Part shown: in pieces, positions 13,655-39,960 of the stretch
How positions within the stretch are numbered: the first letter of the stretch is position 1
Layout of the letters: the number at the start of each line of letters is the position of its first letter
Assembly (NCBI GenBank): GCA_964561855.1
Contig: CAZLQP010000004.1
Span: forward strand, 1,341 to 65,340
Direction of reading: 5' to 3'
DNA: 64,000 nt
Origin: an uncultured Burkholderiales bacterium
GTDB taxonomy: Bacteria > Actinomycetota > Acidimicrobiia > IMCC26256 > JAGPDB01
The notes under the pieces: model-generated
Databases searched by the model: none
Seen by the model: only the letters and a program-made list of their open reading frames with translations
What the model was told of the DNA's origin: nothing
Made by a program: the position numbers and the translations under genes

Positions 13655-16600
13655 GTGACTCTTATTCGGCGTTTGATGGTTGGCTTAATTGTTGTAGCAT
13701 TGTTCTCTTTTTCTGCTCAACTTTTTACAATAAAAGAAGCATCAGCATTGACCTTTACCGTCACCAACACAAACTCTACGGGTCCAGGATCATTTGTTCA
13801 AGCGGTACTTGATGCCAATGCTTCTGCTGGAGATGATACCATCGCATTCGATATTCCAGGTCCGGGGCCTCATATTATTTCAATGACGTCAGTTCTATCT
13901 ATTACAGATACACTCACTATCGATGCTACAGGAACTGGTGGTTCTGTTTGTGCCACGAACGAAACTCCGGCATCATGGAATGTGCAGTTGGATTTTAACT
14001 TAGGCGTAAATGCTCGCTTACATTTCGAGACTGGTTCGGATAACTCATTGGTTCGAGGACTAAGTCTCGTTGATAATGCAGATACTCCAGCCTTTATTTA
14101 TTCAGACAATGTTGGATTTGAATGTAATGCTTTTCAATTGAATCCAGATGGAACAGAAGTTTCAACCGGAAGTGGATACGTATACTTCAACCCAACTGCC
14201 AGCGGATACGTAGGAGGCCCAGATGTCTCTAATCGAAACTATTTCTTTGTTATTAGTGGGGTTCTAATCGATGGGGACGGTGGAGTCAACGTAGAGAATA
14301 ATTATTTCGGTCTGTCACTTGATGGATCATCTTCATCGAACATTGTGAATACATCTCCACATGTGAATCTTCGAAACGGTGGTACAAATGTCATCGTCGA
14401 GGATAATGTTTTTGGTGGAGGTTATCAAGCTATTGGAGGTTTCAACCTTACAGGAGATGTAAATCTTACTGCTCGTGGCAACAAAATAGGTACTACATCA
14501 TCTGGCTTAACGGGTCTTGGTCTCACTTCCACCGGAATTTATTTACATGGATCACTAGGAAACATCGCTATAGGTGGACCAACAGTTGACGATCGAAATG
14601 TCATTGCATCCAATAGTGGACATGGAATTTCCGTTATTGGCGAATCTGGAACGAGAGATTTTACGATTGAAAACAACTACATTGGTGTTTTAGCAGACGG
14701 AACAGGAGATGGTAACGGTTCTAACGGTATAGAAGTTACTTCAAGCAATCTAACTGTTGTCGACAATGTAATTTCAGACAATGGTGGTACGGGAATTGTT
14801 GGTTATGGGCCAAATGCAACTGTCCAAGGTAACAAAATTGGTACAGATCCTACAGGTGCGACAGGACTTGCTAATTCGCAAGGAGGAGTGCATCTATATC
14901 ATGGCGCATCAAATACAAACTGGACAGTTGGTGGAAGTATCGATACAGGTAATCTGATTGTAAATAATGGTGACGGTCCTGGAGTAAGAATTTATCCATC
15001 AAATGGGTATGAATCAACTGTAGATATTTCGTACAATACGCTCACTGGCAATAACGGAAATATCACATTAGATAATGGGAACGCCCAAAATATTTCTGGG
15101 TCGATTACTAACAATGTTATTGATGAATCTAGAGCACACGGGATTTTGGCATATTCGATCGGTGAACTAATGATTCAAGAAAACACAATTTCTAATTCTG
15201 ACTTGGCTGCAATTTCCTTAATCGGAGGCGATCACACAATTCAAGATAATACGATTTCTGACTCAACAACCTATGGAATTTCTTATGCGGCTGATTCAAC
15301 GGCTTCGGTAATTGATGGCAATGATATTTCCAACAGCGTTTTAGACGGAATTTATCTCACAGGCGGAATCGATGGAGATGTTCTCAACAATACAGTGACT
15401 AACTCAACGTTAGTTGGAATGAGAATTCATGGCGCGAATGTCAAAGTTGCAGGAAATACAGTCACTGAATCTGGTGAAGATGGAATAATTCTTGCATCTA
15501 GCAGTCAGTTCGATGTTCATGACAACATTGTGACAGATAATGTTAATAATGGTATTGAAACCGAGAATGGTTCAACTGGTCCGATATATAACAACATTAT
15601 TCACTCGAATGGAAACTTCAATCTTGATATCGGAAATGATGGGGTGAATAGCAATGACAATGGTGATCTCAATGATCCATTAAATCATCCATTAATTCGA
15701 GGTTTGAATGTCAATGGTGGAAATACGACCGTCATCTTTACTCTTGATGGCAGGGCGGGAGATTACCGTTTTGATATTTGTAATAACCCAAGCGGTAATC
15801 CTTCGGGGGGTGCATGTGAAGTCTTTTTAGCTACACAAACATTTAATGATGTTTCATCGGGAAATAATCAGTTTGAAATTGTTGTTTCAGGAACAGGGTT
15901 TGACCCTGAATTACTTTCTATTCAAAGTGTTAGACGAGAAGGTGGAGTAAACGTTCAGTCAAGTGAATACGGTGGATATCAACAATATGGTGTTGATTTA
16001 CAAGTCAACTACATACAAGCTGGTTCGACATTTGGAAACATAACCCATGTAGGTCCTGGAGATGAATTCGGTGTGCCCGGCGGGGTAAAACCTTATAGCA
16101 TGATGGTCCAGTTCTGTCATGTAAATGGAGAAACAGTCACTTCATTTAGTGTAAGTACATCCACAGTCAGATTTTTGATTTCTGATTTGGTTCTTTTTGA
16201 GGATTATTCCTCTGTCACCAATTTAGGATCAATTGATGACGAAGGTCTTTGGCAAGGTGAAATGCAATCTGGGGATTGTATCGTAATGTTAGTAATAGGA
16301 GAAGTGACGGGTGCTGCAGGTACTGATATTTCTTTGACTTTTGATGTGGAAATGCAAACCCTTGCCGGCGGAATCTCAGGTGAGGAATTAGATCCATCAA
16401 ATAACACAGGAACTATCACTTTACCTATCACTGATCAGCCGGACATCGTCATGGAATCAAGACTTTTGACAGAAGGCGAAATTGTTCCTGGTACGGAAGT
16501 TGAATACGAACTTCAAATCACCAACCTAGGGCCAGGTTCGTCGAATGCAGGTTTCCTCATGCTTGCATTTTTGTTGCCTGATGGAGCTGTTTTCAATGGT

Positions 16601-17455
16601 GTCGGTGATCCAGTCCCTGGTGACGGAGTGGGATTGATGGATGGAACAATGTTTGGTCTTGATCCTAGTGGGTGTACAGAACCTGTTATTGCGAGTTCTG
16701 TTGCTCCTGGCTTGGCTGCTTATGATGGCCAACTAGTTCGGTGTGTGATTAGTGTTCCGACGCCTGCTGAGCCCGGATTTTCTGCGAGACTCAATTTGGA
16801 AATGACAGCAGGGTCAGGTTTTGTTTCTGGATCGACACGAGCAATTGCAGTAGTTATTGCCTTTGATGAGTCGGAATCCATAAGTTTCATAAATCTATTT
16901 AGTGCTGGACAAGATGGTTTTGTTCTTGGATTAAACAATATCGCTTGGCTGACCTATGACGCAGACCCTTTGACTGTTACTATCAATCGTTGTAGTGGAA
17001 TTTCCGCAGTCGTACTTATTAACGATGCATGTTTCACCATTACATTTAACAAAGAAATCTATGCGCCTTCGTTCACAGTAGACGATCTAGTCCTCGAAGG
17101 TGGCGGAACTATCTACTCGTTTGTTCAAAATTCTTCGACACAATGGACTGTAAGACTTACTGGTATGACACCAGGTGGTCAAGTTCGTCTTTTGCTTGGA
17201 CCAGCTAGCGTAATTGATTATTCAGCCATTACAAATGGATCACAAGTGCTCGGAGAAAATGTTGTGCGATTTGGCACAACAGATAGTAGCTCTGGAGAAG
17301 GTAGCTCTGAAGGAAGTTTGGAAGGTACATCAAATCAACTTCCAGCGACTGGTTTTGGCACAGATATCATCACACCAATTTTAATGTTAGCCCTAGGACT
17401 TATGCTTACAAGACGATTTCGACCACGAACTAATCAAGTCACCAATAGCCCATAA
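13655..17455 (+). CDS. Giant LPXTG-anchored surface protein with parallel beta-helix (PbH1-like) repeats
   Basis: 1266 aa with GTG start and a signal peptide. The N-domain GPGSFVQAVLDANASAGDDTIAFDIPGPGPHII is related to the other two surface proteins. Dozens of repeats of type NNxIxxNxxxGI follow (NTISDSTTYGISY, NDISNSVLDGIYL, NTVTNSTLVGMRI, NIVTDNVNNGIE). The C-terminus has LPATG, a hydrophobic helix and RRFRPR. Confidence 0.85.
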   Translation: MTLIRRLMVGLIVVALFSFSAQLFTIKEASALTFTVTNTNSTGPGSFVQAVLDANASAGDDTIAFDIPGPGPHIISMTSVLSITDTLTIDATGTGGSVCATNETPASWNVQLDFNLGVNARLHFETGSDNSLVRGLSLVDNADTPAFIYSDNVGFECNAFQLNPDGTEVSTGSGYVYFNPTASGYVGGPDVSNRNYFFVISGVLIDGDGGVNVENNYFGLSLDGSSSSNIVNTSPHVNLRNGGTNVIVEDNVFGGGYQAIGGFNLTGDVNLTARGNKIGTTSSGLTGLGLTSTGIYLHGSLGNIAIGGPTVDDRNVIASNSGHGISVIGESGTRDFTIENNYIGVLADGTGDGNGSNGIEVTSSNLTVVDNVISDNGGTGIVGYGPNATVQGNKIGTDPTGATGLANSQGGVHLYHGASNTNWTVGGSIDTGNLIVNNGDGPGVRIYPSNGYESTVDISYNTLTGNNGNITLDNGNAQNISGSITNNVIDESRAHGILAYSIGELMIQENTISNSDLAAISLIGGDHTIQDNTISDSTTYGISYAADSTASVIDGNDISNSVLDGIYLTGGIDGDVLNNTVTNSTLVGMRIHGANVKVAGNTVTESGEDGIILASSSQFDVHDNIVTDNVNNGIETENGSTGPIYNNIIHSNGNFNLDIGNDGVNSNDNGDLNDPLNHPLIRGLNVNGGNTTVIFTLDGRAGDYRFDICNNPSGNPSGGACEVFLATQTFNDVSSGNNQFEIVVSGTGFDPELLSIQSVRREGGVNVQSSEYGGYQQYGVDLQVNYIQAGSTFGNITHVGPGDEFGVPGGVKPYSMMVQFCHVNGETVTSFSVSTSTVRFLISDLVLFEDYSSVTNLGSIDDEGLWQGEMQSGDCIVMLVIGEVTGAAGTDISLTFDVEMQTLAGGISGEELDPSNNTGTITLPITDQPDIVMESRLLTEGEIVPGTEVEYELQITNLGPGSSNAGFLMLAFLLPDGAVFNGVGDPVPGDGVGLMDGTMFGLDPSGCTEPVIASSVAPGLAAYDGQLVRCVISVPTPAEPGFSARLNLEMTAGSGFVSGSTRAIAVVIAFDESESISFINLFSAGQDGFVLGLNNIAWLTYDADPLTVTINRCSGISAVVLINDACFTITFNKEIYAPSFTVDDLVLEGGGTIYSFVQNSSTQWTVRLTGMTPGGQVRLLLGPASVIDYSAITNGSQVLGENVVRFGTTDSSSGEGSSEGSLEGTSNQLPATGFGTDIITPILMLALGLMLTRRFRPRTNQVTNSP

Positions 17456-17546: not shown

Positions 17547-17996
17547 CTAAGAACTTCTAAAACTGCGTTGTGGGCCGACAGGCTGTTTGCGGGCCCATTT
17601 CATTAGACCGAAAAATATTCCTATAAGAAATACACCGAGAGGTATATGGATGCCCATGTTTCGATCTAGCCCAGTGCTTAATTGGTAGCCTTCTAAGCTA
17701 ACTACTACCAAAACGATAGGTATAACAGCAATTGGCCAACGTGCGAACCACCAGGTGAATACTGACGCGATGAGAAGTAAAGTACCGACTGCCATAATTC
17801 CAATTCCTGTATCGTAGTGATGTTTAAGCCATTCGGAACGCCCGTCTAAGAATTGACCAATCAATATTGGCTGGATCAAAAGCATAAACAAATTGATCGA
17901 CATAAGAGCCATGAAAGCTTTTACGCTATATTTTTCAATCCATTTAGGTTGTGTTTGTTCGTCTTTAACTTCTGATTTTGTCGTCATAGTAGCCAA
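17547..17996 (-). CDS. Integral membrane protein (4 TM), unknown function
   Basis: 149-aa hydrophobic ORF; no recognisable motif. Confidence 0.5.
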   Translation of the reverse strand: MATMTTKSEVKDEQTQPKWIEKYSVKAFMALMSINLFMLLIQPILIGQFLDGRSEWLKHHYDTGIGIMAVGTLLLIASVFTWWFARWPIAVIPIVLVVVSLEGYQLSTGLDRNMGIHIPLGVFLIGIFFGLMKWARKQPVGPQRSFRSS

Positions 17997-18418: not shown

Positions 18419-18856
18419 TTATGCACACCAATCAATAGTTGTGCTAGCTCGTAGGGTTGAGCTGTTGAAATCAACTCGCCCAAAAGCTTGAAAACATTGC
18501 GTATTTGAAGGGTTGCGTAGTAGATAGGTAACTGACTGAAATCTTCCAGAAATCTGTGGATACATGATTCTATATACTGCTTCTCTGCTGCTATTTCTTC
18601 TAATGCTGACGTATGTTCCACTCGCTTTACTTCCAGTGGCATTGTTTACTTGAGCGAAGAAGTGGCCATTGCTGCAGTTAAACACTCTTAAAGTTCCGAC
18701 AGTAGCGCCGTTGCGAACAATATTTTTAGTTCTATAAGTTGTTCGTCCGCTGCAATCGGTATAGCTTGATCCGTCTGCTGCGCTTGCTGGCATTGCTGTC
18801 ATGATAAGCGAGATTATGACAAGTGCGGATATTAAAAAGATATGTTTGAATTTCAT
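18419..18856 (-). CDS. Small secreted cysteine-containing protein, unknown function
   Basis: Signal peptide MKFKHIFLISALVIISLIMTAMPASA. The mature part is about 119 aa with 4 Cys (C..C..C..C, the last being penultimate). The overlapping ORF 18403..18642 is judged spurious. Confidence 0.55.
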   Translation of the reverse strand: MKFKHIFLISALVIISLIMTAMPASAADGSSYTDCSGRTTYRTKNIVRNGATVGTLRVFNCSNGHFFAQVNNATGSKASGTYVSIRRNSSREAVYRIMYPQISGRFQSVTYLLRNPSNTQCFQAFGRVDFNSSTLRASTTIDWCA

Positions 18857-18937: not shown

Positions 18938-19576
18938 ATGACTTTAAAGGTTATCTCTAAGATTTGGTTCTCAATCCTTGCTCTTTCTGTTGCATGGGTG
19001 ATACCGGTCCAGGCGGTGTTGAATTTCCAGGAAGAAACCGGGATGTTTGCTGAGAATTATGCTCGGGTGTTTAATATGTTTTGGTTCTTTACAATTCTGT
19101 CTAATATCTTGGTGGGCTACGTAAGTTATCGAATTGTATTAAGTGGGGTCGAACAAGGTGCGAGGTTCAATGTTGCAAAGCACACTGCTTTAGTTGCTAT
19201 AACTGTTACGGGAATTGTTTATCATTTGCTCTTAGCTGCAGATGCGAATCTCAGTGGCCTAAATGTCGTTACCGACTTTTTCTTACATACTTTTATTCCG
19301 CTTGGTTATGTACTTGGCTGGATAATCTTCAACAATCGTGGTCAAGTGAATGCGAAGGTTGCAGGAAAGTCTTTGTTGTTTCCTATTATTTGGGCAGTGG
19401 CTGTCATGATTCGCGGACCGATTGTTGATTATTATCCATACAATTTTATGGATGTAAGAGATCTTGGGTATGCAGAGGCGCTTATAACCATGGGATTTGT
19501 AACTTTGTTTTTTGTAGCCTTAGCCTTCGGCTACTTTCTTCTCGACAAACTCTTAGAGAAAAGGTCCGTCCTCTGA
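18938..19576 (+). CDS. Integral membrane protein (FAR-17a/AIG1-like / Pr6Pr-like, tentative)
   Basis: Six hydrophobic helices. FWFFTILSN and DYYPYNFMD resemble that family as I recall it. The stop codon TGA (19574..19576) lies inside the left arm of the 19557..19645 palindrome. Confidence 0.55.
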   Translation: MTLKVISKIWFSILALSVAWVIPVQAVLNFQEETGMFAENYARVFNMFWFFTILSNILVGYVSYRIVLSGVEQGARFNVAKHTALVAITVTGIVYHLLLAADANLSGLNVVTDFFLHTFIPLGYVLGWIIFNNRGQVNAKVAGKSLLFPIIWAVAVMIRGPIVDYYPYNFMDVRDLGYAEALITMGFVTLFFVALAFGYFLLDKLLEKRSVL

Positions 19577-19645
19577 ATCTTGCGATAAATTGCACTAATG
19601 TCGCTAATACAAGTTATCGCAAGATTCAGAGGACGGACCTTTTCT
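19557..19645. repeat. Perfect 31-bp inverted repeat (family D, GGTCCGTCC core) acting as bidirectional terminator between convergent genes
   Basis: AGAAAAGGTCCGTCCTCTGAATCTTGCGATA (19557..19587) is the exact reverse complement of 19615..19645, with a 27-nt spacer. It overlaps the stop codons of both flanking genes. Confidence 0.85.
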
Positions 19646-20691
19646 CAGTCGTCGGATTTGGTCATGTGGAAGATGCCGGTTGCATTGCCTGCATCAAAAG
19701 CTAGATCGACGCTACCATCTTCTTTGTTTTTTCTAGTGATGAATTCAAAGAATGAGCCTGGAACTTCTTTATGCACAATCTCATTGTCATCTAATCTGAA
19801 ACTTCTAGTGATCGGATCTGCTTTGTATGCGGTCTGCATTATATTTCCTGTCTTAGAAACCTCGACAGTATCTTTCATTGGATAACCGAGTTGTTTTTGT
19901 TCTTCAGATAATGCCATTACGTCAGCAACTCTATCTGTCGCATGGTTAAAAGCATTTCCTTCAGTTGCAATCCAAGCCATTTCTGCAGAATGCTGTAACA
20001 GCTCGTTATAATCTGACAAAAGTGGTACAGGATGTTGACGATCAAAAGCGCGAGCGATGTTTTGTAAAAGATTCCCACATTTATTTCGTGGAAGGTATCC
20101 GTTTTCACCAATGAAACTCAGATCATCAAGAGTCTCTTGGTTAAGAGGATCGATTGATTCTTCAACAACATCAATTACAGCTTTTTCAAAATCATCATTT
20201 TCGAACTTGTCAGGATGAAGTTCACTCACAAAATATTGAGGTATCACTTGAGGATAATCAGCATGAGTGTAACTTCTACCTGTCATCTTGAGTTTTGTTA
20301 AAGGATATGTCTCATTGTGGAAATATCCGAGTGGAATTAAGATTCGCGTAAGCGATTCCTCTCCTACAGGTAAATCTCCGTTTCGTAGATGGTCTACTGT
20401 TCTCACTGCGCCGTGATCCAAAAAAATTGTTTCTCCCTCAGAGTGTTTTTGCTCAAAGTACTTCTGTGCATGAGGTACACGTTCGAGCAAATCAGCATAC
20501 AAAACTAGAAACAAAGAAAATGCGATATGGGCCCTTGAAACGTTCTCATCTCCGAAAGTACCAAGAGGTTCAGGGATCAGAATCGTTTGAGAGAATTCGT
20601 CGACTCTTTTGCCGCCAATTATTTCTCGGATGATATTAAAAACTGTAATGTCAGTGCTAAATAATGACATTTCGTTGGAACTGTTTTCCAT
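19645..20691 (-). CDS. hglS: DUF1338-family protein, 2-oxoadipate dioxygenase/decarboxylase (HglS)-like
   Basis: About 350 aa with the FLDHGAVRT metal-binding motif characteristic of DUF1338/HglS. Genomic context is other lysine-catabolism genes. Confidence 0.6.
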   Translation of the reverse strand: MENSSNEMSLFSTDITVFNIIREIIGGKRVDEFSQTILIPEPLGTFGDENVSRAHIAFSLFLVLYADLLERVPHAQKYFEQKHSEGETIFLDHGAVRTVDHLRNGDLPVGEESLTRILIPLGYFHNETYPLTKLKMTGRSYTHADYPQVIPQYFVSELHPDKFENDDFEKAVIDVVEESIDPLNQETLDDLSFIGENGYLPRNKCGNLLQNIARAFDRQHPVPLLSDYNELLQHSAEMAWIATEGNAFNHATDRVADVMALSEEQKQLGYPMKDTVEVSKTGNIMQTAYKADPITRSFRLDDNEIVHKEVPGSFFEFITRKNKEDGSVDLAFDAGNATGIFHMTKSDD

Positions 20692-20699
20692 GTTGATTC

Positions 20700-21797
20700 C
20701 TATTCGTCAGATGAATGAGATACAGCAACGCCATCTACATAGTAGCGACCAAATGTCGTGTTGATGAGTTCTTTATAAGGTATGTCCTCTTGTCTGATGT
20801 AGCCCTTATTGGGCAGAACTCCTTTAGAAACAAGCTCTATAACCGCGCAGGCACTTGCTGCTGTTGTCCAGCTAATTGCTCGCCAAGATTTACCGTGGAT
20901 TTCTCGAGCATGATATGCGCGAACAAAAGTATCGCGAAGAAGTTCTCCGTTGCGATGTCCTTCAACTGCAGAGTAAATGTAAACGACATCATCGGTGGTC
21001 TGTGGTTTTGAATTTAGAAGTATTTCTGCTACAAGTTCGCGTTTGTCTCTAAGAAGTAGTTCATCAAATAAAAACTCCATTTGCTTTGCATGACCAGGAT
21101 AGCGAAGTGTTTTATAGTCAAGACGATTGACTCTACCCTCATAGGTGTCGGTCATAGTTCCCAGACCGCCAGAAGTTGTGAATGCTTCGAGCTTGATACC
21201 GTTGATAATTACTGTTTCAATTTCTTGTAGCGAAGGAATAGTTTTCTTTTTACCGTCCCTTATAGCTTCAGCATCATTTAGATATTCGTTAACAATCCCT
21301 TCGGCGGACCAGTTAATTGCGTAACCTAACAATCCATGTGGTGCGCGAGGAAGAGCGCCTACTCTTAATTCGAGTGAACGTACATCATCGAATTCTCGCA
21401 TCATTGATGCACCGATAATTCCAATAAGTCCTGGAGCTAATCCGCATTGAGGTACAAGCGCAATAGGTGAAGATTTCGAGTTTTCAATTATGAATTTCGT
21501 ATGAGGTACATCCTCAGTCAAGTCGAAGTAATGTATTTTGTTAGCCATTGCTATCTTGGCGACTTCTGTATTTAGAAAATAAGGAAGACAAGAAATGACA
21601 GCGTCAAAGTCTTTTAAGTTTTTCTTCAAAGCCTTCGCATCTGTAACATCTACAGATTTTGTTTCAAAATAGAAATCCTCGCGTGGAGATTGATCGAAGC
21701 CAGTCACTTTAACGCCATTGAAGTGAAGAAGCTCTGCGATTAAAGAACCCACTTTTCCAAGGCCTACTACAGCCACATGTTGGATATTACCTTCCAC
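20700..21797 (-). CDS. Saccharopine dehydrogenase-family enzyme, likely L-lysine 6-dehydrogenase
   Basis: Rossmann motif VAVVGLGKVGSLIAELL and a length of about 365 aa. PQCGLAPGLIG and the C-terminal SDH-like domain are present. It is adjacent to an ALDH7-type dehydrogenase. Confidence 0.7.
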   Translation of the reverse strand: MEGNIQHVAVVGLGKVGSLIAELLHFNGVKVTGFDQSPREDFYFETKSVDVTDAKALKKNLKDFDAVISCLPYFLNTEVAKIAMANKIHYFDLTEDVPHTKFIIENSKSSPIALVPQCGLAPGLIGIIGASMMREFDDVRSLELRVGALPRAPHGLLGYAINWSAEGIVNEYLNDAEAIRDGKKKTIPSLQEIETVIINGIKLEAFTTSGGLGTMTDTYEGRVNRLDYKTLRYPGHAKQMEFLFDELLLRDKRELVAEILLNSKPQTTDDVVYIYSAVEGHRNGELLRDTFVRAYHAREIHGKSWRAISWTTAASACAVIELVSKGVLPNKGYIRQEDIPYKELINTTFGRYYVDGVAVSHSSDE

Positions 21798-21895
21798 AAA
21801 TACCTCTCTTACCTGGGATTACTACTAGGTGTCGTCCATAAAAGATAAGAGCTTTAGACTCTTTATTTAGTCCTGTAATATGACGAAAGTACACT

Positions 21896-23314
21896 ATGAT
21901 CTCTGATATTGCCACCATTTATGCCGAGCTAGATGCTCTATGTGGTCGCAAGCTCGACAATCAAGGCAATATTGAAGATCGATACTTAATCCCTTGGCGG
22001 GGTAGTAAGGGTTCTGCCTTGGCAGTTGTCGCGCCAAAATCGATAGATCAAGTTAAAGCCCTGATTCGTCTAGCAAAAAAACATGGATTGAAAATAGTTC
22101 CACAAGGAGCACGAACATCTCTTGTTGGCGGAGCGGTACCACCAGAAGATGGGACAGATTCACATCTGATTTTGTCGATGGAAAATTTTCGAGATGTATT
22201 GCGCTTTGATTCTGTTGAGAAAAAAGTTGTCGTCAGCTCAGGATATTTTTTGAGCGAGATCAACGAATATCTTGAGACTTACGGAGTCGAGGTTCCTATA
22301 AATGTAAGTTCTGATCCAATGGTTGGTGCAATGGCTGCAACAAACATTGCGGGCGCAAGAGTAATGCGATATGGGGATTTTAGAAAACTTTGTTCGGGAA
22401 TTGAAGTGGTCCTTGCTGACGAAAATGAAAGCATCTTCTCTTCTATTTCTAAGCCGGTGAAAGATAATTCTCATTTAAGTTTTACGTCTTTGTTTGTAGG
22501 CTCTTTTGGTCAATGTGGAGTAATAACAAAAGTTGAACTCGATGTTGTGCCCAAAGTTAATGAAACATTAACTGCTTGGTTGCAACTGTCAGATGAATGT
22601 GATCTATCTGAGTTAATCTCAATTTTGGAAGAAGATACTCAGGATTCTTTACTAGCAGTCGAATTGGTTTCAGCAAATGCCCTGACTGCTTTGAAAGATT
22701 CAGAGTTACACTCAAATTCAAATACGGTGATACCATTCGACGGGCAAAGTGATCTAGTCATGATCGAAGTTGGTGGAAGTGGTTACCAGAAATTTCTCGA
22801 AGAGATTTTAGAAACCAAAATATCTGAAGTCATGCAAGCACACTTAGTAGCTGATGCCCAAATAGTACCTTCAGATAAATCTTGGGAACTTCGGCATAAC
22901 ATTTCTGAAGCAGTGCAAAAGTCAGGAAAACTTGTCGGTTGCGATATTTCTGTGACGAAAGATAAATTTAATCAACTCAGAAATAGCGCTACCAAATTAA
23001 TACAAGAGATCGATCCTCAATATAGAGTTTGTGATTTTGGACACCTTGGCGATGGTGGTGTGCATATGAATGTTGTTATTCCATTTGGTCATGATAATGA
23101 GAATGACATCGAAAAACAACAAGAACTTCGTGGAGCTATTTCAAAAGTAGCAGTTGATCTTGGGGGCAGCTTTTCTGCTGAGCATGGCATTGGTTTGTTT
23201 AACATCGGTTTATATGATGAGTTTATTGAAGAGTCTGTCAAGTATCTATCTAAAGGTTTCAAATTAAGATGTGATCCAGAAAATGTATTAGGAATAAAAC
23301 AAGTCGAGTTGTAA
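21896..23314 (+). CDS. FAD-linked oxidase (GlcD / D-2-hydroxyacid dehydrogenase family)
   Basis: FAD_binding_4-type N-domain (VVAPKSIDQVKALIRLAKKHGLKIVPQGARTSLVGGAVP) and a C-terminal FAD-oxidase domain ending SAEHGIG. Confidence 0.8.
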   Translation: MISDIATIYAELDALCGRKLDNQGNIEDRYLIPWRGSKGSALAVVAPKSIDQVKALIRLAKKHGLKIVPQGARTSLVGGAVPPEDGTDSHLILSMENFRDVLRFDSVEKKVVVSSGYFLSEINEYLETYGVEVPINVSSDPMVGAMAATNIAGARVMRYGDFRKLCSGIEVVLADENESIFSSISKPVKDNSHLSFTSLFVGSFGQCGVITKVELDVVPKVNETLTAWLQLSDECDLSELISILEEDTQDSLLAVELVSANALTALKDSELHSNSNTVIPFDGQSDLVMIEVGGSGYQKFLEEILETKISEVMQAHLVADAQIVPSDKSWELRHNISEAVQKSGKLVGCDISVTKDKFNQLRNSATKLIQEIDPQYRVCDFGHLGDGGVHMNVVIPFGHDNENDIEKQQELRGAISKVAVDLGGSFSAEHGIGLFNIGLYDEFIEESVKYLSKGFKLRCDPENVLGIKQVEL

Positions 23315-23323
23315 GAGGGCAAT

Positions 23324-24913
23324 ATGAGTTACACAATACCTACAAGTCTAAAAACAAAGACACCGCCATCGACTTCTGCGATTGCAGATGAGGTGTTGGT
23401 AGTGCTCAAGAAGTTAGATATCGATCTAGCTGCATATGGATTTGAGATGCTAAAAGTACCTAATGCTAATCTTGGAACAAGTGACGGTAAAGTGTCTTTG
23501 CGTACGCCTATAACTGGTCAGGCCTATGCAACCATTAGTGCAACGACATCAACTGATATCGATTTGGCACTTAATGATTCTGGCAACGCATTTAAAGATT
23601 TCCGAGCACTCCCTGCTCCTGTAAGAGGAGAGTTCGTGCGTGTACTTGGAACATTGCTGCGTGAATATAAATCAGAACTTGGTTTTTTGGTATCTATTGA
23701 AGCTGGGAAGATAGTTTCTGAAGGACTAGGTGAAGTCCAAGAAATGATCGACATTGCCGATTTCGCTGTTGGACTATCACGTCAACTTTATGGCAAAACA
23801 ATAGCTTCAGAACGACCACAACATGCGATGCGTGAAACTTGGCATCCATTAGGGCCAGTAGGTGTGATCACTGCATTCAATTTTCCAGTAGCGGTTTGGG
23901 CATGGAATGCATGTATTGCATTTGTCTGTGGAGATAGTGTCGTATTCAAACCCTCAGACAAGACTGCAGTTTCCTCGATCGTGATTCATGAATTGGCAAA
24001 ACGTGCAGCCGCACAGTGTGGGATAAGTCAAGATGTGTCTCAATTAATACTAGGTGGGGTTGAACCTGCAGTTTTACTGGCAGAAGATGACAGGATTTCG
24101 TTGTTGAGTGTGACTGGTTCAGTTGCAGCTGGCGCTGCTTTGGCTCCGATTGTTAGCGCGCGTTTTGGGAAATCCCTATTGGAGCTCGGTGGAAACAATG
24201 CAATGATAGTAACTCCCAGTGCAGATCTTGATTTGGCTTTGAGAGCTATAACATTTTCGGCTGCAGGTACAGCAGGTCAGCGATGCACAACATTGCGCAG
24301 ACTTATTGTGCATAAGTCAGTTAAAGAACAACTAGTTGCAAAGTTGCAAAGTGCATATGACTCTCTTGAAGTAGGCAACCCACTTTGCGATTCGGTTTTA
24401 GTAGGTCCATTGATAGAAGAAAAATCACATAATGCTTTGACTGTTGCGCAAGAAAAACTTGGAGTTGAATCAAAAAGAGAATTCTTTGGTGATTTTGATA
24501 ATGCTTACTATCACCGTCCGACAATTTCTTTTGTTGATAAGAATGAAGAGTTGCTACAACATGAAACTTTCGCGCCTTTGCTTCATGTTGTTGAATATGA
24601 AGAGATTGAAGAAGCGATTGAAATTAACAATAGTGTTCCGCAAGGGTTGTCATCTTCGATCTTTACAAATGATGTGAGAGAAGCAGAATTATTTCTATCT
24701 GCTGTAGGTTCAGACTGCGGTATTGCAAATGTGAATATTGGGCCGTCGGGTGCAGAAATCGGCGGAGCGTTTGGTGGAGAGAAACAAACTGGTGGCGGAA
24801 GAGAATCTGGATCCGATGCTTGGAAAGCATATATGCGCAGAGCGACAAACACTGTCAACTACGGAACTGAACTCCCCCTAGCCCAAGGCGTCCAATTCAC
24901 TCCGGAGGACTGA
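23324..24913 (+). CDS. pcd: ALDH7-type aldehyde dehydrogenase (alpha-aminoadipic semialdehyde / piperideine-6-carboxylate dehydrogenase)
   Basis: ELGGNN and catalytic Cys GQRCT. The C-terminal [45 protein letters not shown] is nearly identical to the antiquitin terminus (...[43 protein letters not shown]). The last codons CCG GAG GAC TGA are REP sequence. Confidence 0.9.
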   Translation: [529 protein letters not shown]

Positions 24914-25618
24914 CCCTCCAAAAGGTTTAAAAGGGACTAATTATCCCTTGATCCACTTAGTTAGATTGCATAATCTTTTAATATGCCATCTAGAAATGCA
25001 ATTAAGTGTTATTCTTCGTATAGTTATTACCATATTTACAATAGAGGAATCGAAAAAAAGAACATATTCGAAAGCGCCGAAAATAAAGAAAAATTTCTCC
25101 GACTGGTTTCTAGATACTTGGACACCGAAAATACTGAATGTGATCGCGACGGTGTTCCGTACAGAAAGTTTAATGATCAAATTGAATTACTTAGCTATTG
25201 CATAATGGACAATCATTTTCACTTTTTAATTTGGGTAGCAGATGATGCTAGATCGCTAAGCGAATTCATGAGGAGTCTTGGAAGCGCCTATACGATGTAT
25301 TTCAACAAAAGATATGATCGTGTCGGTCCACTTTTTCAAAGTCGATATAAAGCCGTGACAATAGGGAATGACAGTCAGCTGCTTCATATAACGCGATATA
25401 TTCACTTAAATCCTGGCCCGTCTTCGTTCGAATATGCTTACTCAAGTCTCGGTCGCTATCTTCAGAAGAGTTCTAACGACGATGTGTTGAACTGCTTAAA
25501 TCCAAAAAGAATCTTGGAGTTGTTTGAAATTGGAAGCTACGAGGATTTTTTAAGAAGTGAATTGAACACTGAATCTACTTGAGTGTGAAATGTACCTTTT
25601 GGAGGGTCAGTCCTCCGG
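24902..25618 (+). mobile_element. RAYT unit: REP-associated tyrosine transposase gene flanked by inverted REPs (family A)
   Basis: CCGGAGGACTGACCCTCCAAAAGG at 24902..24925 and its exact reverse complement at 25595..25618 bracket the 199-aa Y1/HUH transposase ORF. Confidence 0.85.
24983..25582 (+). CDS. REP-associated tyrosine transposase (RAYT; IS200/IS605-like Y1 HUH transposase, COG1943 type)
   Basis: YHIYNRGIEKKNIF, HUH motif in LLSYCIMDNHFHFLIW, FMRSLGSAYTMYFNKRYDRVGPLFQSRYKA, and catalytic Tyr motif RYIHLNP. This is the canonical RAYT motif order. Confidence 0.88.
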   Translation: MPSRNAIKCYSSYSYYHIYNRGIEKKNIFESAENKEKFLRLVSRYLDTENTECDRDGVPYRKFNDQIELLSYCIMDNHFHFLIWVADDARSLSEFMRSLGSAYTMYFNKRYDRVGPLFQSRYKAVTIGNDSQLLHITRYIHLNPGPSSFEYAYSSLGRYLQKSSNDDVLNCLNPKRILELFEIGSYEDFLRSELNTEST

Positions 25619-26989
25619 GGCCTCCGGGAGGGTGGAGAGGATTAGGGTTATGTCTTGAAGGGTTGTTGTTGGGTTGATGATGCAGAATCGGATTACGGTT
25701 TCACCTTTGTGGGTTGTTGGTACGATAAAGGCAAATTCTTTTTGCATTAAACTTTCACACCAGTTTTTATAGTCTTTGGTATCAAAACCTTTTACTTTAA
25801 AAAGTATGACGCTCAACTCAGGTTCTATAACAAGTTCGAGTCTCTCATCGTTTTGAATAAGCTCGGCAGCTTGTCGAGATACATCAATGCATTGTGTGAC
25901 GGCTTGCTTAATTGCATTAGTGCCATGGACTGCCAGTGTAAACCAAAGGGTAAGTCCTCTAGCTCGTCTTGTTAAATGATGTGCATAGTCCGATGGATTC
26001 CAATCAGGAGTTTCGTGAATTGCATCAAGGTATTCTGCATCTTGAGCATGAGCTTTTCGCGCAACTTTGGGATCTTTGTATATCAGTGCTGCGCAATCGA
26101 AAGGGGAGAACAACCATTTGTGGGGATCAATAACGAATGAGTCAGCATTTTCCACACCTTTGAATAAATGCCTTGTCTTATCACACAAGATTGCTGCGCC
26201 ACCATAGGCTCCATCGACATGAAACCAAAAATCATGGTCTTTACATATTTCTGATGTCATATCTAAGTCATCAACATAGCCAGTATTGGTTGCACCTGCA
26301 GATGCAACAACTGCAAAAACTCTATCTAATTCTTCAGGATCAAGATTTTTTATAGTCTTTTGTAATTCTTCGCCAGTTAGGCGAAAGTTTTCATCGCCTT
26401 TTACTTTGATGACATCGATGTCCATTGCTTTAGCAGCTAGGCGAATAGATGAATGTACGCTAGGTGTCGCCAATATAGCAAGGCGCTTTTTCTTGTACTG
26501 AGGTTTTGCTTTTCTAAATCTATATCTTGCAGCAATTAAACCTGATAGATTCGCAGCTGTTCCTCCTGAGACGAATACTCCTCCAGATGTTTTGGGAAAG
26601 CCAATCATGTCAGAGATAAATCTCAAAGCCTGATTTTCAGCAGCGACAACTCCAGCGCCTTCGAGCCAAGTGCCTCCAAACATTGAACTTGCAGAAACCA
26701 CAAGGTCGATTAACGAAGCGGCATTTGCTGGGGCATTGGGTACAAAAGCTAGATAGCGTGGATGGTCAGTAGAAAGTGTTGCGGGAGCGACTATGTTTTC
26801 AAATACATCAAACGCTTTTTGTGGACCTAAACCGTCTTCGTTAATGACGCCTTCGAGTTTGGGTAGAAGCTCCTCTGCAGATACTGGAGTATCTAAAGTG
26901 GGTGGATCTTCTTTTAATCTTTCAATTGAATATTTAGCAATGCGTTCAGCAAGCTCATTAGCTTCATCGTCGAAATGATGTAAATCCAC
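25607..26989 (-). CDS. Group II pyridoxal-phosphate-dependent amino-acid decarboxylase
   Basis: 460 aa with GTG start. Motifs: SGGTAANL, HVDGAYGG, DPHKWL (PLP-lysine). The C-terminal ...EAPED* is encoded by the REP at 25595..25618. Confidence 0.85.
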   Translation of the reverse strand: MDLHHFDDEANELAERIAKYSIERLKEDPPTLDTPVSAEELLPKLEGVINEDGLGPQKAFDVFENIVAPATLSTDHPRYLAFVPNAPANAASLIDLVVSASSMFGGTWLEGAGVVAAENQALRFISDMIGFPKTSGGVFVSGGTAANLSGLIAARYRFRKAKPQYKKKRLAILATPSVHSSIRLAAKAMDIDVIKVKGDENFRLTGEELQKTIKNLDPEELDRVFAVVASAGATNTGYVDDLDMTSEICKDHDFWFHVDGAYGGAAILCDKTRHLFKGVENADSFVIDPHKWLFSPFDCAALIYKDPKVARKAHAQDAEYLDAIHETPDWNPSDYAHHLTRRARGLTLWFTLAVHGTNAIKQAVTQCIDVSRQAAELIQNDERLELVIEPELSVILFKVKGFDTKDYKNWCESLMQKEFAFIVPTTHKGETVIRFCIINPTTTLQDITLILSTLPEAPED

Positions 26990-28041
26990 TACTGACCTTT
27001 GGTGTCACGCTTTTTTGCTGCCAATCCAGAAAGAACTTCCCAGACAATTCGATGGGCGACGTTAATAGTCGTATCAGCAACGTCGTATGCTGGAGAGACT
27101 TCTACAATATCCATTCCGACCAGATTTGTTTCTTGAGCAATTCGCCTGACACTTCTCAAAATGTCATGAGGTGTAAGTCCTCCTGGTTCTGGTGTTCCAG
27201 TACCTGGGGCAAATCCAGGATCGACGGAATCAATATCTACTGAGAGATACAAATAGTCAGTCCCTTCTTTGGCTTGTGTAATAGCGGTCTCGAGAACTTC
27301 TTTTATTCCTTTATCCCAGATGTCTTGCATTGTGTGCCAACGCATTCCTTGATCTTTCATCCATTGGAATTCTTTTTCTCCAGGCCAGTAGCCCCGTAAA
27401 CCAACTTGAATAAAATTCTCACCTTTAACGACACCTGATTCAATTAGCCTACGCATAGGCGTTCCGTGACTGTAAAGGTTGCCGTCAATAATATTTCCTG
27501 TATCAGCATGTGCATCAAAATGAATCATGCCGACTTTGCCTTCGCCATATTTTCGTGCAACAGCTGTAACAGAAGGAACGGCCACTGAATGATCTCCTCC
27601 TAAAGTAACTGGAAAAATTCCACGTGAGGCTACTTCGTAGACACGATTTTCGATTGCTTGTCTAGACTCTTCCCACATTCCTGCAAAACATATTGCATCT
27701 GCAAAATCAACACACTTTAAATAATCGAAGATTTCTATTTCGAGATCAATATTGTATGTGCCTGGATGATAAGCGCTGGCTCTTAGAGCTTGGGGTCCAA
27801 ATCTCGCGCCTGGACGGTTTGAAACATTTGCGTCATAGGGTGCACCTACGATTGCGACGTCTGGAGTAAAACTGTCGAGATCTTCGCTCTCAGTCAGATA
27901 AGGAAATTTTCCGAAACTCAACATACCTTGATAGCTTGGAGCATCCAATTGGGCTTGCATGCCAGGCTTTATTAGTTTCTCGAAATCTGGAGATATGTTT
28001 TGTTGACCATTTTCGTTGGCATCAAATTCTTCTGCTGTCAT
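26989..28041 (-). CDS. speB: Agmatinase / guanidino-acid ureohydrolase (arginase family)
   Basis: Mn-binding motifs GGDHSV, DAHADT, SVDIDSVDPGFAPGTG. The stop overlaps the GTG start of the downstream decarboxylase by 1 nt. Substrate (agmatine vs another guanidino compound) cannot be decided from sequence. Confidence 0.8.
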   Translation of the reverse strand: MTAEEFDANENGQQNISPDFEKLIKPGMQAQLDAPSYQGMLSFGKFPYLTESEDLDSFTPDVAIVGAPYDANVSNRPGARFGPQALRASAYHPGTYNIDLEIEIFDYLKCVDFADAICFAGMWEESRQAIENRVYEVASRGIFPVTLGGDHSVAVPSVTAVARKYGEGKVGMIHFDAHADTGNIIDGNLYSHGTPMRRLIESGVVKGENFIQVGLRGYWPGEKEFQWMKDQGMRWHTMQDIWDKGIKEVLETAITQAKEGTDYLYLSVDIDSVDPGFAPGTGTPEPGGLTPHDILRSVRRIAQETNLVGMDIVEVSPAYDVADTTINVAHRIVWEVLSGLAAKKRDTKGQ

Positions 28042-30734: not shown

Positions 30735-32038
30735 TTTTTACTCTTCAATTTGGTGTGAGTTGCAAGTACGTATTGAACAATATCTTCTTTGTCAATATTT
30801 TTGTTTAGATCGTCTCCCAACGACAAAGTAATATTTGTTGCTTTAGAACCATAAACAGTTTCGTAGTCAATTTCAGAGGTATCGGCAATCAATTGATCGA
30901 ACTCTGCAAAAAATGGGTCGGTATCGACTAGCTCATCCCATTTGTTATCCGTTATTTCAACCTTTAGTCGAGTAATGATCGTTCGGTTACGAGAATCATT
31001 AATAGCTAATCTAAGGGCATCTATATCTAAATTAGATATCTCCATGTCTAGCTGAATGTTTACTCTTGATAGATAAAGAACATTCTCGTTATTTATATCG
31101 TTAAGAGTTTCATTTATTTCGTTGATCAGCTCTTCTGTACTATCAATATTTTCAAAGCTAAATGAATGCTCAGTGAATCTGACCGTGTCACATGACAAAA
31201 ACTTTGTAATTACTTCTGATCCTGCATCATTTATTGTTATAAGTACACAGCCTTTGGGTTCTTGTTCTGCTGGCTTTGCGCTCAACCCTTGAGCATTTCC
31301 ACTGTAGGCAACCATTGGGTGCATACTCAAAATCTCTCGTTTATGAATATGTCCTAAGCCAAAATAGTCGTAACCGAAAGATGTCAATTTTTCTAAACTG
31401 CTTGGAGCATAATTAGAGTGATTCGAATTCGAGCCAACATTTGTATGAAGCACTCCTATATTTATTGAGCCAGAAACTTTTTGTGGAAATAGCGAAGCGA
31501 GGTCTCTGCTTTCATCAGAACTCTTATAGCTAACTCCATGAAATGCAACCTTGTGTTCACCGAATACTTTCGATATTGTCTCGGGAGCAGAAGAACTAAA
31601 CACATGTGTGTTTTTTGGCCAAGAGACTCTTAACTCATTTATTGAATCGAGCGGGTCATGGTTGCCCAGTGCGATCAATACTTCGATAGCGTTTTCATCA
31701 AGCTTTTCCAGAAAGTTTGCGAATCTACTTCGAGCTCGCAAATTTGTAGTGGTGTTCTCCTTTTTGTCAAAAATGTCTCCAGCGATTATCACTGCATCTA
31801 CTTTGTTTTCAATAGCATGCTGAGAGATAGATTCAAGTGTATTTAGCGGCGCATCACGCATTTTTTGGATTTCAACACTAGATAGTTCATCGTGATCGCT
31901 CGCTCTATGAGCATTTCGAAGCACAGCATCTAGGTGAAGATCTGCACAATGTATGAATTTGAAAACCACAAATATAAGAGTATCAGCGATATGTGACAAA
32001 AAACACTTTGAGATATTAGTATCATGAATAATTAACAT
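30731..32038 (-). CDS. Metallophosphoesterase, SbcD/Mre11-like DNA repair exonuclease (YhaO-like)
   Basis: FIHCADLHLD, IIAGDIFD, ALGNHD, GLGHIH motifs. The true start is probably the GTG at 31969 (VVFKFIHCADLH) rather than 32038, which would abut the divergent ferredoxin gene. Confidence 0.8.
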   Translation of the reverse strand: MLIIHDTNISKCFLSHIADTLIFVVFKFIHCADLHLDAVLRNAHRASDHDELSSVEIQKMRDAPLNTLESISQHAIENKVDAVIIAGDIFDKKENTTTNLRARSRFANFLEKLDENAIEVLIALGNHDPLDSINELRVSWPKNTHVFSSSAPETISKVFGEHKVAFHGVSYKSSDESRDLASLFPQKVSGSINIGVLHTNVGSNSNHSNYAPSSLEKLTSFGYDYFGLGHIHKREILSMHPMVAYSGNAQGLSAKPAEQEPKGCVLITINDAGSEVITKFLSCDTVRFTEHSFSFENIDSTEELINEINETLNDINNENVLYLSRVNIQLDMEISNLDIDALRLAINDSRNRTIITRLKVEITDNKWDELVDTDPFFAEFDQLIADTSEIDYETVYGSKATNITLSLGDDLNKNIDKEDIVQYVLATHTKLKSKK

Positions 32039-34710: not shown

Positions 34711-34724
34711 TCTAGGAACATTAA

Positions 34725-35606
34725 ATGAAATCTAAATCATCGGCAAGAAAGAAGCGCTTCGTTCCTGTTGCGCTTCTTTCGCCGGGGATGATTTGGTTAG
34801 GGCTTTTCTTTTTTGTACCCCTAACAATGCTTTTTATCGAGTCACTCTCATCTAAGGAATCTCGGTTTGCTCAAACTTCTTTTTCTTGGGAATGGGCTAA
34901 TTATTCTCAAGCTTTTACTCAATTTGGTGAACAGTTTCAGCGTTCGTTCGTCTATGCAGGTATTGCTACTGTTGTTGCTCTATTGTTGGCCTTTCCGCTT
35001 GCCTATGTAATCGCTTTTAGAGGAGGCAGATGGAAAAACTTTTGGATGGCGTTGGTGATGGTTCCATTTTTTACAAATTTTCTTATAAGAACTTTGGCAT
35101 GGAAAACGCTGCTTGGTGCTAATGGCCCGATTGGTTTTATATTCAATCGTGAGATTGATTTGTTTTTATTCACTATTGAAACTCCCAATCAGTTTTTATT
35201 CACGCCAGCGGCAGTGATTGGTGGTTTGGTATATAACTTTTTGCCATTTATGGTATTGCCAATTTACGTGGCTTTAGAAAAAATAGATCCTGGTTTGATC
35301 GATGCAGCGCGTGATTTATATGCAAATACTTTTACTGCATTTCGAAAAGTAATTGTCCCCTTGGCAATGCCTGGTATTTTTGCCGGAAGTTTATTGGTTT
35401 TCATTCCAGCTGCAGGAGATTTTGTAAATGCAGAATATCTCGGTGGAATTCAAACAAAGATGATTGGAAATGTGGTTCAAGAACAGTTCTTGGGTCTGAA
35501 TAACTATCCAGTGGCTGCTGCATTGTCATTTGTTTTCATGTTGATTGTGCTGGTTCTCTTTTCGATATACAGTGCAATATTTGATGCAGAAGATTTAGCG
35601 GGTTAA
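34725..35606 (+). CDS. potB: Polyamine ABC transporter permease
   Basis: 6 TM; EAA-type loop IDAARDLYANTFTAFRKVIVPLAMPG. Confidence 0.85.
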   Translation: MKSKSSARKKRFVPVALLSPGMIWLGLFFFVPLTMLFIESLSSKESRFAQTSFSWEWANYSQAFTQFGEQFQRSFVYAGIATVVALLLAFPLAYVIAFRGGRWKNFWMALVMVPFFTNFLIRTLAWKTLLGANGPIGFIFNREIDLFLFTIETPNQFLFTPAAVIGGLVYNFLPFMVLPIYVALEKIDPGLIDAARDLYANTFTAFRKVIVPLAMPGIFAGSLLVFIPAAGDFVNAEYLGGIQTKMIGNVVQEQFLGLNNYPVAAALSFVFMLIVLVLFSIYSAIFDAEDLAG

Positions 35607-35608
35607 TT

Positions 35609-39954: not shown

Positions 39955-39960
39955 TATATA

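Follow-up and report, generated by a model that had tools for sequence, protein, structure and literature searches.

We analysed a 64,000-nucleotide stretch of contig CAZLQP010000004.1 (hereafter the window), in which four adjacent genes form a compact block of 5.3 kb. The genes encode a protein of the saccharopine dehydrogenase family (SDH-family protein), an aldehyde dehydrogenase of the ALDH7/antiquitin type, a DUF1338 protein and a GlcD-type FAD-linked oxidase. An earlier examination of the bare sequence (the sequence-only reading) had proposed that the block takes lysine to 2-oxoglutarate through 2-aminoadipate and D-2-hydroxyglutarate (D-2-HG). Judging from sequence comparison and genomic context, we consider it fairly probable that the four genes act as one unit for the conversion of L-lysine to 2-oxoglutarate. 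This reading is carried by the gene order, the family membership of the proteins, their conserved catalytic residues and the co-occurrence of the genes across lineages. We are more confident of the steps assigned to the ALDH7 protein and to the predicted L-lysine 6-dehydrogenase (LysDH), and less confident of the last two steps.

The four genes and their predicted products

Under this proposal the SDH-family enzyme would convert L-lysine, in an NAD(P)-dependent reaction, to 2-aminoadipate 6-semialdehyde and NH3, the semialdehyde being in equilibrium with piperideine-6-carboxylate (P6C), and the ALDH7 enzyme would oxidize the semialdehyde/P6C to L-2-aminoadipate. An aminotransferase encoded elsewhere, with 2-oxoglutarate as acceptor, would then yield 2-oxoadipate. 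From this the DUF1338 protein, using Fe(II) and O2 as HglS does, would form D-2-HG and CO2, and the GlcD-type FAD/metal enzyme would return D-2-HG to 2-oxoglutarate. The substrates given here for each enzyme are predictions.

The four open reading frames (ORFs) lie exactly where the sequence-only reading had placed them, as two closely spaced pairs that diverge from each other. The minus-strand pair starts with the SDH-family gene, with the DUF1338 gene 8 nt behind it; the plus-strand pair starts with the oxidase gene, with the ALDH7 gene 9 nt behind it. We propose that these are two divergent two-gene operons (lysDH-hglS and d2hgdh-amaB) that would work as one catabolic unit. Since each operon would supply one early and one late step, the two halves would be useful only together. 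The intergenic region between them must hold the promoters of both gene pairs and would allow them to be co-regulated. A consensus promoter and terminator scan yielded fewer promoter-like sites in the cluster than in shuffles, and no convincing one in this region. The cluster contains no regulator gene.

Searches with Pfam and NCBIfam bore out the domain calls made from the sequence for all four proteins. The SDH-family protein carries PF03435 (Sacchrp_dh_NADP) and PF16653 (Sacchrp_dh_C), and with 365 residues it has the compact form of about 350-385 aa, with a two-domain saccharopine-dehydrogenase-family fold, that is typical of LysDH. Its top sequence match in the PDB was 3abi (E 1e-25), followed by 2axq (3e-10), with saccharopine reductases and dehydrogenases at 3e-10 or worse. 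The 3abi structure is that of the Pyrococcus horikoshii L-lysine 6-dehydrogenase (PMC10413350; the title of the PDB entry agrees). When an AlphaFold model of the protein (pLDDT 85.5) was compared with known structures by Foldseek, 3abi was again the top match (TM 0.83/0.86, rmsd 2.3 Å, 351 columns), while saccharopine dehydrogenases gave TM 0.77/0.64 with an rmsd of about 5 Å and carboxyspermidine dehydrogenases about 0.73/0.68. No carboxyspermidine or homospermidine enzyme was found among the PDB sequence matches at E <= 0.01. Thus a grouping with homospermidine/carboxynorspermidine-type enzymes, named beforehand as a finding that would speak against the pathway, was not observed, and the nearest relative by both sequence and fold is a LysDH.

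Further support for the LysDH step comes from Ruegeria. Over its full length the SDH-family protein shares 42% identity with WP_117873659 of Ruegeria sp. AD91A, and the latter shares 80% with the fragment of an R. pomeroyi protein whose crystal structure is PDB 3ic5. The AD91A gene is directly followed by an aldehyde dehydrogenase gene whose product is 58% identical to the ALDH7 protein of the window. In R. pomeroyi, SPO0234 (lysdh) and SPO0235 (aasadh) carry an annotation derived from experimental work (PMC4334477), and because the AD91A pair mirrors SPO0234/SPO0235 we counted it in favour of the LysDH step. From gene order only, we infer that 3ic5 is SPO0234. Orthologues at 56-59% identity are present in Aeromicrobium, where an ALDH7 gene comes directly after, and in a Rickettsiales metagenome-assembled genome (MAG; L090, JANRLM010000003.1, 5727-8065), where the SDH-family gene (56% identical) is translationally coupled to a DUF1338 gene, the two overlapping by 4 nt at the stop codon of the latter. 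The DUF1338 protein of this MAG is of the long form (425 aa) and of the HglS/YdcJ type, with the HglS-like motif ERHGAIRLG. This pairing indicates that the LysDH-like gene partners with both DUF1338 subtypes in different lineages. Taken together, sequence, model and context lead us to predict that the SDH-family protein is an L-lysine 6-dehydrogenase (EC 1.4.1.18).

The firmest of the four assignments is that of the ALDH7 protein as a predicted 2-aminoadipate semialdehyde/P6C dehydrogenase. It matches the Aldedh domain of Pfam with 367 bits and the NCBIfam model pip_6_carb_DH (L-piperideine-6-carboxylate dehydrogenase) with 718.6 bits (cut-off 730), far ahead of the next family at 231 bits. 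Its PDB matches include 6dbb (E 2e-180), the Pcd structure 6rtr (5.7e-167) and human ALDH7A1 (about 1e-129), which confirms the ALDH7/antiquitin type. The catalytic motifs are intact, with E287 in ELGGNN (residues 287-292) and C321 in GQRCT; the R-C-T context around C321 is what we take to be the ALDH7 substrate motif.

The DUF1338 protein matches PF07063 (HGLS/DUF1338) with 79.4 bits (cut-off 25), and the DHGAVRT motif noticed earlier lies at residues 92-98. It is about 50% identical over its whole length to PDB 3iuz (E 1e-88). In single-sequence searches HglS 6w1g was matched at E 0.47 and 6w1k at E 0.007, a profile of 14 sequences brought 6w1g to 4.5e-9, and the protein scored 19.6 bits on the NCBIfam HglS equivalog (Myco_VOC_HglS), for which the cut-off is 600. 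The protein is thus not an orthologue of the assayed members (PP_5260, YdcJ, FLO7 and mycobacterial HglS) and belongs to the 3IUZ subfamily instead. Four residues are invariant across 14 homologues, namely H93 and R97 in DHGAVRT, H250 in NHATDR and E316 in FFEFITR. The aligned counterparts of these motifs are RHGAIRVG and NHLT in HglS and (Y/F)xEF in 3LHO and FLO7, the match at H93 being obtained after manual correction of a shifted HMMER alignment. R97 stands four residues past H93, the same spacing as between H70 and R74 of HglS. The metal triad of HglS is His70/His226/Glu294, Arg74 binds the distal carboxylate of 2-oxoadipate and R74A is inactive (PMC7286885). Thompson et al. predict conversion of 2-oxoadipate to D-2-HG for every DUF1338 protein with the His-His-Glu plus Arg signature, and at the time of their work the older DUF1338 structures 3LHO, 3IUZ and 2RJB were uncharacterised (PMC7286885). 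The equation of the DUF1338 protein with HglS therefore stands as regards the metal triad and the arginine, whose loss had been named as a second finding that would speak against the pathway, but it does not stand as regards orthology to PP_5260. We predict from these residues that the protein is an Fe(II)-dependent 2-oxoadipate dioxygenase/decarboxylase.

A lysine fitness phenotype in S. meliloti was considered as genetic support for the 3IUZ type and was set aside. A tblastn search with the 3IUZ-type protein and an E limit of 1e-5 gave no S. meliloti match in a plasmid/chromid collection that includes a 3.7-Mb S. meliloti record labelled pSymB. The phenotype is therefore probably that of a DUF1338 type further removed, and it does not carry over.

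The GlcD-type oxidase has the domains PF01565 (FAD_binding_4) and PF02913 (FAD-oxidase_C), and its PDB matches are led by 3pm9 of R. palustris (3.5e-47) and the human D-2-HG dehydrogenase D2HGDH, 6lpn (7.6e-35), ahead of lactate and glycolate enzymes. In the alignment, H383, H390 and E429 correspond to the human Zn ligands H434, H441 and E475, the catalytic H430 to H476, and R333 to R386, which contacts the C1-carboxylate. In the C5-carboxylate pocket of the human enzyme there is strict conservation of Lys401 and Asn443 and high conservation of Thr390 and Tyr432; Lys401 forms a salt bridge to the C5-carboxylate of D-2-HG, and a mutation of this Lys leaves the enzyme inactive, and Asn443 separates D-2-HG dehydrogenases from GlcD and D-lactate dehydrogenases (PMC7801405). 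The window protein keeps Asn443 (N392), has a conservative change of Thr390 (S337), shares with 3pm9 a phenylalanine in place of Tyr432 (F381) and has H334 in place of Glu387. The claim that the oxidase is a D-2-HG dehydrogenase thus holds for its relatives, domains, Zn ligands, catalytic His, Arg and Asn443, but not for the C5-carboxylate pocket, where the Lys401 of the canonical enzymes is absent.

Recurrence of the genes and the weighing of alternatives

With a profile for the DUF1338 subfamily we searched GTDB genomes, one for each species. This gave at least 565 loci; we retained the best 80 (L002-L081) together with as much as 10 kb of flanking sequence on each side. An ALDH7-type gene at least 50% identical to that of the window was present at 50 of the 80 loci, a class-I aminotransferase (with a MocR-like domain) at 29, a GlcD-type oxidase at 17 and a homologue of the SDH-family gene at 11, all 11 of which also had ALDH7. 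All four genes were found together at seven loci. Three of these belong to close relatives with the same divergent layout, and the other four to Burkholderiales (three Inhella species and one Burkholderiales MAG), where they stand colinearly as SDH-ALDH7-DUF1338-oxidase or as SDH-DUF1338-ALDH7-oxidase. The four-gene core is also kept in five further close relatives. Since the combination recurs at 7/80 loci and in two layouts, the arrangement is not due to chance. The genes therefore do travel together in other genomes, distant Burkholderiales included, as the sequence-only reading had said they should if they form a pathway.

The neighbours at the 80 loci point in the same direction. YdiJ-like oxidases (473 bits on the YdiJ model, cut-off 1350) were present at 10 loci, and a GlcD-type and a YdiJ-like oxidase were never found together (0/80), which looks like non-orthologous replacement. 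Also among the clustered neighbours were LysR regulators, a reductase of piperideine-2-carboxylate/pyrroline-2-carboxylate (P2C/Pyr2C) above its cut-off and a DAO gene resembling pipecolate oxidase, with 194 bits on the AmaA model (cut-off 600). The set as a whole corresponds, one step after another, to the roles of the Pseudomonas putida D-lysine route, that is P2C reductase, pipecolate oxidase, AmaB, transaminase, HglS and YdiJ, with the 3IUZ-type protein in the place of HglS. In Tistrella the order is LysR - DUF1338 - ALDH - aminotransferase. Thompson et al. had already remarked on such DUF1338 neighbourhoods in general terms (2019, bioRxiv 10.1101/450254).

The sequence-only reading was also right that the cluster does not encode the 2-aminoadipate transaminase step; the only aminotransferase found in the window is of the ArgD type and lies 38 kb away. 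The Pfam and NCBIfam scans on which this rests covered 38 window ORFs, consisting of nearly all those of at least 200 aa and three below that length (24983-25582 and, without a match to any family, 18419-18856 and 17547-17996). A tblastn search with a Burkholderia-type aminotransferase gave no match in the window. The transaminase of the proposed route would thus be unlinked, as PP_4108 is from PP_5257-5260 in P. putida.

None of the three findings that had been named as speaking against the pathway was made, but the equations of the DUF1338 protein with HglS and of the oxidase with D2HGDH proved looser than originally put, and several observations weigh against a lysine to 2-oxoglutarate pathway. 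The ALDH7 protein falls 11 bits under the equivalog cut-off of pip_6_carb_DH. The SDH-family protein is only 42% identical to the presumed Ruegeria LysDH, whose link from 3ic5 to SPO0234 is itself presumed. Between the DUF1338 protein and the assayed HglS, YdcJ and FLO7 there is only a remote relationship, and the literature searched yielded no assay for the 3IUZ subfamily. No 2-aminoadipate aminotransferase was found in the window by the Pfam and NCBIfam scans, and an SDH-family gene and a class-I aminotransferase occurred together at none of the 80 loci. Finally, the oxidase has Gly348 where human D2HGDH has Lys401, and Gly or Ala occupies this position in 13 of 14 GlcD-type oxidases beside a 3IUZ-type DUF1338 gene, with Lys only in L052. 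The 13/14 count indicates that lack of Lys401 is a feature of the clade. The oxidase may still work like a D-2-HG dehydrogenase, and its residues and relatives lead us to predict that it is one, of a Lys401-less clade.

The last of these points raise the question of whether LysDH and ALDH7 form an unchanged front end while the 3IUZ-type DUF1338 protein and the Lys401-less oxidase use another pair of 2-oxo and 2-hydroxy acids, with a different end product or a route that lacks the classical transaminase. We regard this as unlikely. It would account for the Gly/Ala at a position that is essential in D2HGDH (PMC7801405), for the distance of the 3IUZ subfamily from HglS and the want of an assay in the literature searched, and for the mutual exclusion of the SDH-family gene and the aminotransferase. 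This exclusion is our main reason for keeping the alternative open, although it may merely reflect lineage, with the pipecolate-type clusters of Burkholderiaceae set against LysDH-type clusters. Against another substrate pair stand the invariance of the Arg that holds 2-oxoadipate by its distal carboxylate and the retention of the D2HGDH-specific Asn443. The YdiJ-like oxidases of 10 loci and the canonical, Lys-bearing D2HGDH-type oxidase of L052 share the neighbourhood position of the Lys-less clade, which argues for the same function, and the Rickettsiales MAG couples its orthologue of the SDH-family gene to an HglS of the canonical long form. An unlinked transaminase would also be nothing unusual, that of P. 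putida being unlinked too. It is quite unlikely, to our minds, that the DUF1338 protein and the oxidase are a distinct pair with differing substrate recognition or substrates, which in LysDH-type clusters would serve a variant 2-aminoadipate route that bypasses the classical transaminase to 2-oxoadipate and D-2-HG.

Other alternatives concern the front end or the purpose of the pathway. That the SDH-family protein is a glutamate-forming saccharopine dehydrogenase, with lysine entering through a lysine-ketoglutarate reductase (LKR) encoded elsewhere and the remainder of the pathway the same, is improbable. Both Pfam saccharopine dehydrogenase domains are present, saccharopine reductase and the SDH domain of AASS come next by sequence and fold, and R. 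pomeroyi has both routes (PMC4334477). However, the LysDH 3abi is ahead by E value, by target-normalised TM score (0.86 against 0.64) and by rmsd, the protein has the compact length of LysDH where saccharopine dehydrogenases have about 440 aa, and no alanine-dehydrogenase-like LKR gene was seen among the scanned window ORFs. Decidedly improbable, too, is a role in osmoadaptation, in which LysDH and ALDH7 would make 2-aminoadipate (or, via P6C, pipecolate) as compatible solutes and DUF1338 and the oxidase would clear the surplus. The relatives are marine, no dedicated transaminase was found in the window, and R. pomeroyi prefers the lysDH route at high salt with aminoadipate as osmolyte (PMC4334477, PMC6397837). 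Yet the closeness of lysDH to DUF1338 and of ALDH7 to the oxidase would mean that synthesis and degradation are co-expressed, no reductase gene for pyrroline-5-carboxylate or P6C was noted among the scanned neighbours, and this view differs from a catabolic one in purpose and not in enzyme chemistry. A polyamine module seems highly improbable. It would make the SDH-family protein a carboxy(nor)spermidine/homospermidine-type enzyme acting with the agmatinase, pyridoxal phosphate (PLP) decarboxylase and PotABCD-like transporter described below, and it draws on the agmatinase (TIGR01230) and group II decarboxylase near ALDH7, syntenic in all close relatives, and on the PotA/D/B/C-like transporter with its PuuD-like gene. 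But carboxyspermidine dehydrogenases were not matched by sequence at E <= 0.01 and rank below LysDH and SDH by fold, the aldehyde dehydrogenase is of the P6C-dehydrogenase type by nearly 500 bits over the next family, and the partners of the SDH-family gene in distant lineages are ALDH7 and DUF1338 and not agmatinase. Carboxyspermidine decarboxylases, moreover, have a different fold. The polyamine module is therefore largely refuted by the sequence and fold ranking and by the cross-lineage context.

Mobile element, host and neighbouring genes

Features of the four-gene block, the adjoining mobile element and the region with the only aminotransferase found in the window
Feature	Position	Strand	Remarks
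DUF1338 (PF07063) protein, 3IUZ subfamily	19645-20691	-	348 aa
SDH-family NAD(P) dehydrogenase	20700-21797	-	365 aa, GTG start
Divergent intergenic region	21798-21895	.	98 nt
GlcD-type FAD-linked 2-hydroxyacid dehydrogenase	21896-23314	+	472 aa
ALDH7/antiquitin-type aldehyde dehydrogenase	23324-24913	+	529 aa
Left REP-like arm of perfect 25-nt inverted repeat	24902-24926	+	overlaps ALDH7 stop codon
RAYT-like Y1 (IS200-type) transposase	24983-25582	+	199 aa; PF01797 46.4 bits
Right REP-like arm of perfect 25-nt inverted repeat	25594-25618	-	overlaps PLP-decarboxylase stop codon
argB (acetylglutamate kinase) - argD (acetylornithine aminotransferase family)	61725-63785	+	argD 62589-63785; class III, above subfamily cut-off

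A REP-associated tyrosine transposase (RAYT; REP, repetitive extragenic palindromic) had been reported at the 3' edge of the cluster. Its presence is confirmed by a Y1 domain, by the HUH and Tyr motifs (HFH at residues 78-80; RYIHLNP with its Tyr at 138-144) and by flanking inverted REPs, and the ORF scored 48.3 bits on the NCBIfam model REP_Tyr_transpos, below the cut-off of 80. The REP core GGACTGACCCTCCAAAAGG has 8 copies in the window where 0 are expected. Apart from the two arms, REP-like elements lie at 37291-37352, 39936-39955, 51531-51550 and 58031-58092, and the copies include two REPIN-like inverted pairs about 42 nt apart. The ALDH7 and PLP-decarboxylase proteins, whose stop codons lie under the REP arms, both end in ...PED*. 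The RAYT has no part in the pathway; the occurrence of a REP/RAYT system in an Acidimicrobiia-like genome may be interesting in its own right.

We also considered whether an original fifth gene had been lost to the RAYT and rejected this, since the slot that the RAYT occupies (24914-25606), between the ALDH7 gene and the PLP-decarboxylase gene convergent with it, varies among relatives. It is occupied by the RAYT in the window and by a Y1 transposase/RAYT also in L085 (3187-3771), by a 449-aa DAO-family FAD oxidoreductase in L002 (4090-5439) and by an SBP_bac_3 amino-acid-binding protein in L087 (2879-3670), and it is empty in L086.

The host had been taken for an actinobacterium. This stands in so far as the closest relatives are marine Acidimicrobiia MAGs, but with a GC content of about 41% in the window it is not a classical high-GC actinobacterium. 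The DUF1338 and SDH-family proteins have their closest homologues in marine metagenomes and in MAGs that carry the label Acidimicrobiia or Actinomycetota, and by these similarities the host is apparently a low-GC marine Acidimicrobiia-like bacterium. The database names of the homologues were uninformative, being only "saccharopine dehydrogenase family protein" and "DUF1338". The contig of L002 (CAYMMG010000006.1) is labelled "uncultured Burkholderiales", and its proteins are 70-80% identical to those of the window and of the Acidimicrobiia MAG L003, with full synteny; the taxonomic label of this bin is probably wrong.

Beyond the RAYT lie a group II PLP decarboxylase gene and an agmatinase-family ureohydrolase gene with a 1-nt overlap (25607-28041, minus strand). 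The latter scores 207 bits on TIGR01230 (cut-off 174), and the decarboxylase is nearest to diaminobutyrate decarboxylase, far under the cut-off. They are followed by an SMC-like ATPase and a metallophosphoesterase that resemble SbcCD (28098-32038, minus strand). The decarboxylase, ureohydrolase and SMC-like ATPase genes keep synteny with the four-gene core in every close relative and do not accompany it in distant lineages; we treat all three as neighbours by descent. On the plus strand at 32462-37285, at a distance of 7.5 kb from the cluster, lie the genes of a PotA/PotD/PotB/PotC-like ABC transporter and, after them, one for a homologue of peptidase C26/PuuD-like gamma-glutamyl-GABA hydrolase; all scores are well under the equivalog cut-offs, and the genes are a possible polyamine uptake and utilisation module.

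On the other side of the cluster, a Pr6Pr-family membrane protein (18938-19576, plus strand; NF038065, 107 bits, cut-off 30) is convergent with the DUF1338 gene. By tblastn its homologue in L002 and L003 is within about 2 kb downstream of DUF1338, in L004 it immediately adjoins that gene, and in L086 and L087 an unannotated 209-aa gene is found at its position. Two right-handed beta-helix/NosD-like repeat proteins of 1266 aa (13655-17455) and 422 aa (37367-38635), both encoded on the plus strand, are probably secreted or surface-located. Further away, at 5693-6781 on the plus strand and syntenic in L086, is a gene for a monomeric sarcosine-oxidase-like flavoprotein of the DAO family (soxA_mon/N-methyltryptophan oxidase family, under the cut-offs). 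Because its family includes pipecolate oxidases, this flavoprotein could, by analogy, feed P6C into the cluster.

Comparison with known systems

The pathway is already known and similar DUF1338 neighbourhoods have been published, and the locus adds a tidy further example. If our reading is true, it would give a context-based function to the 3IUZ branch of DUF1338, an orphan of structural genomics. It would also mean that the HglS lysine route of Pseudomonas and plants is used, with entry through a lysine 6-dehydrogenase, by abundant uncultured marine Acidimicrobiia, which would bear on how these bacteria use dissolved amino acids. The D2HGDH-like clade without the supposedly essential Lys401 would then be a target for studying other ways of recognizing the distal carboxylate of D-2-HG, and the compact four-gene block would be a handy cassette for engineering the conversion of lysine to 2-oxoglutarate or D-2-HG. 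Current understanding is not overturned by any of these points.

Each of the predicted enzymes can be set beside a known counterpart. The SDH-family protein and PH1688 (3ABI) share a length class (365 aa against 349-365 aa) and a fold, and PH1688 is the best sequence match; identity in the structural alignment is only 24%, however, and PH1688 is archaeal. As in the R. pomeroyi pair, an SDH-family lysine dehydrogenase gene adjoins one for an ALDH7-type semialdehyde dehydrogenase, but the Ruegeria locus has neither a DUF1338 gene nor a GlcD-type oxidase gene beside the pair, and 2-aminoadipate is discussed there as an osmolyte (PMC4334477). The DUF1338 protein belongs to the same subfamily as PDB 3IUZ ("putative glyoxalase superfamily protein"), from which it differs in that its genomic context supplies a functional hypothesis. 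The oxidase resembles the canonical D2HGDH enzymes 6LPN and 3PM9, its nearest solved relatives, in the FAD_binding_4 and FAD-oxidase_C domains, the Zn ligands, the catalytic His, Arg386 and Asn443. It differs from them in the changes of Lys401 to Gly348 and of Glu387 to His334 and in its membership of a separate DUF1338-linked clade.

The closest known route as a whole is that of P. putida KT2440, which comprises AmaB, PP_4108, HglS (PP_5260) and YdiJ (PP_4493) (bioRxiv 10.1101/450254, PMC7286885). The intermediates from P6C onward would be the same, and both systems have an ALDH7/AmaB-type dehydrogenase, a DUF1338 protein with His-His-Glu and Arg, and a flavoenzyme that oxidizes D-2-HG or is predicted to do so. 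The entry differs, being a predicted L-lysine 6-dehydrogenase here and the conversion of D-lysine through P2C and pipecolate to P6C there. The DUF1338 protein of the window is of the short 3IUZ type (348 aa) and that of P. putida of the 464-aa HglS type, and the candidate D-2-HG dehydrogenase is GlcD-type in the one and YdiJ-type in the other. Unlike in P. putida, all four genes are here gathered into a single block.

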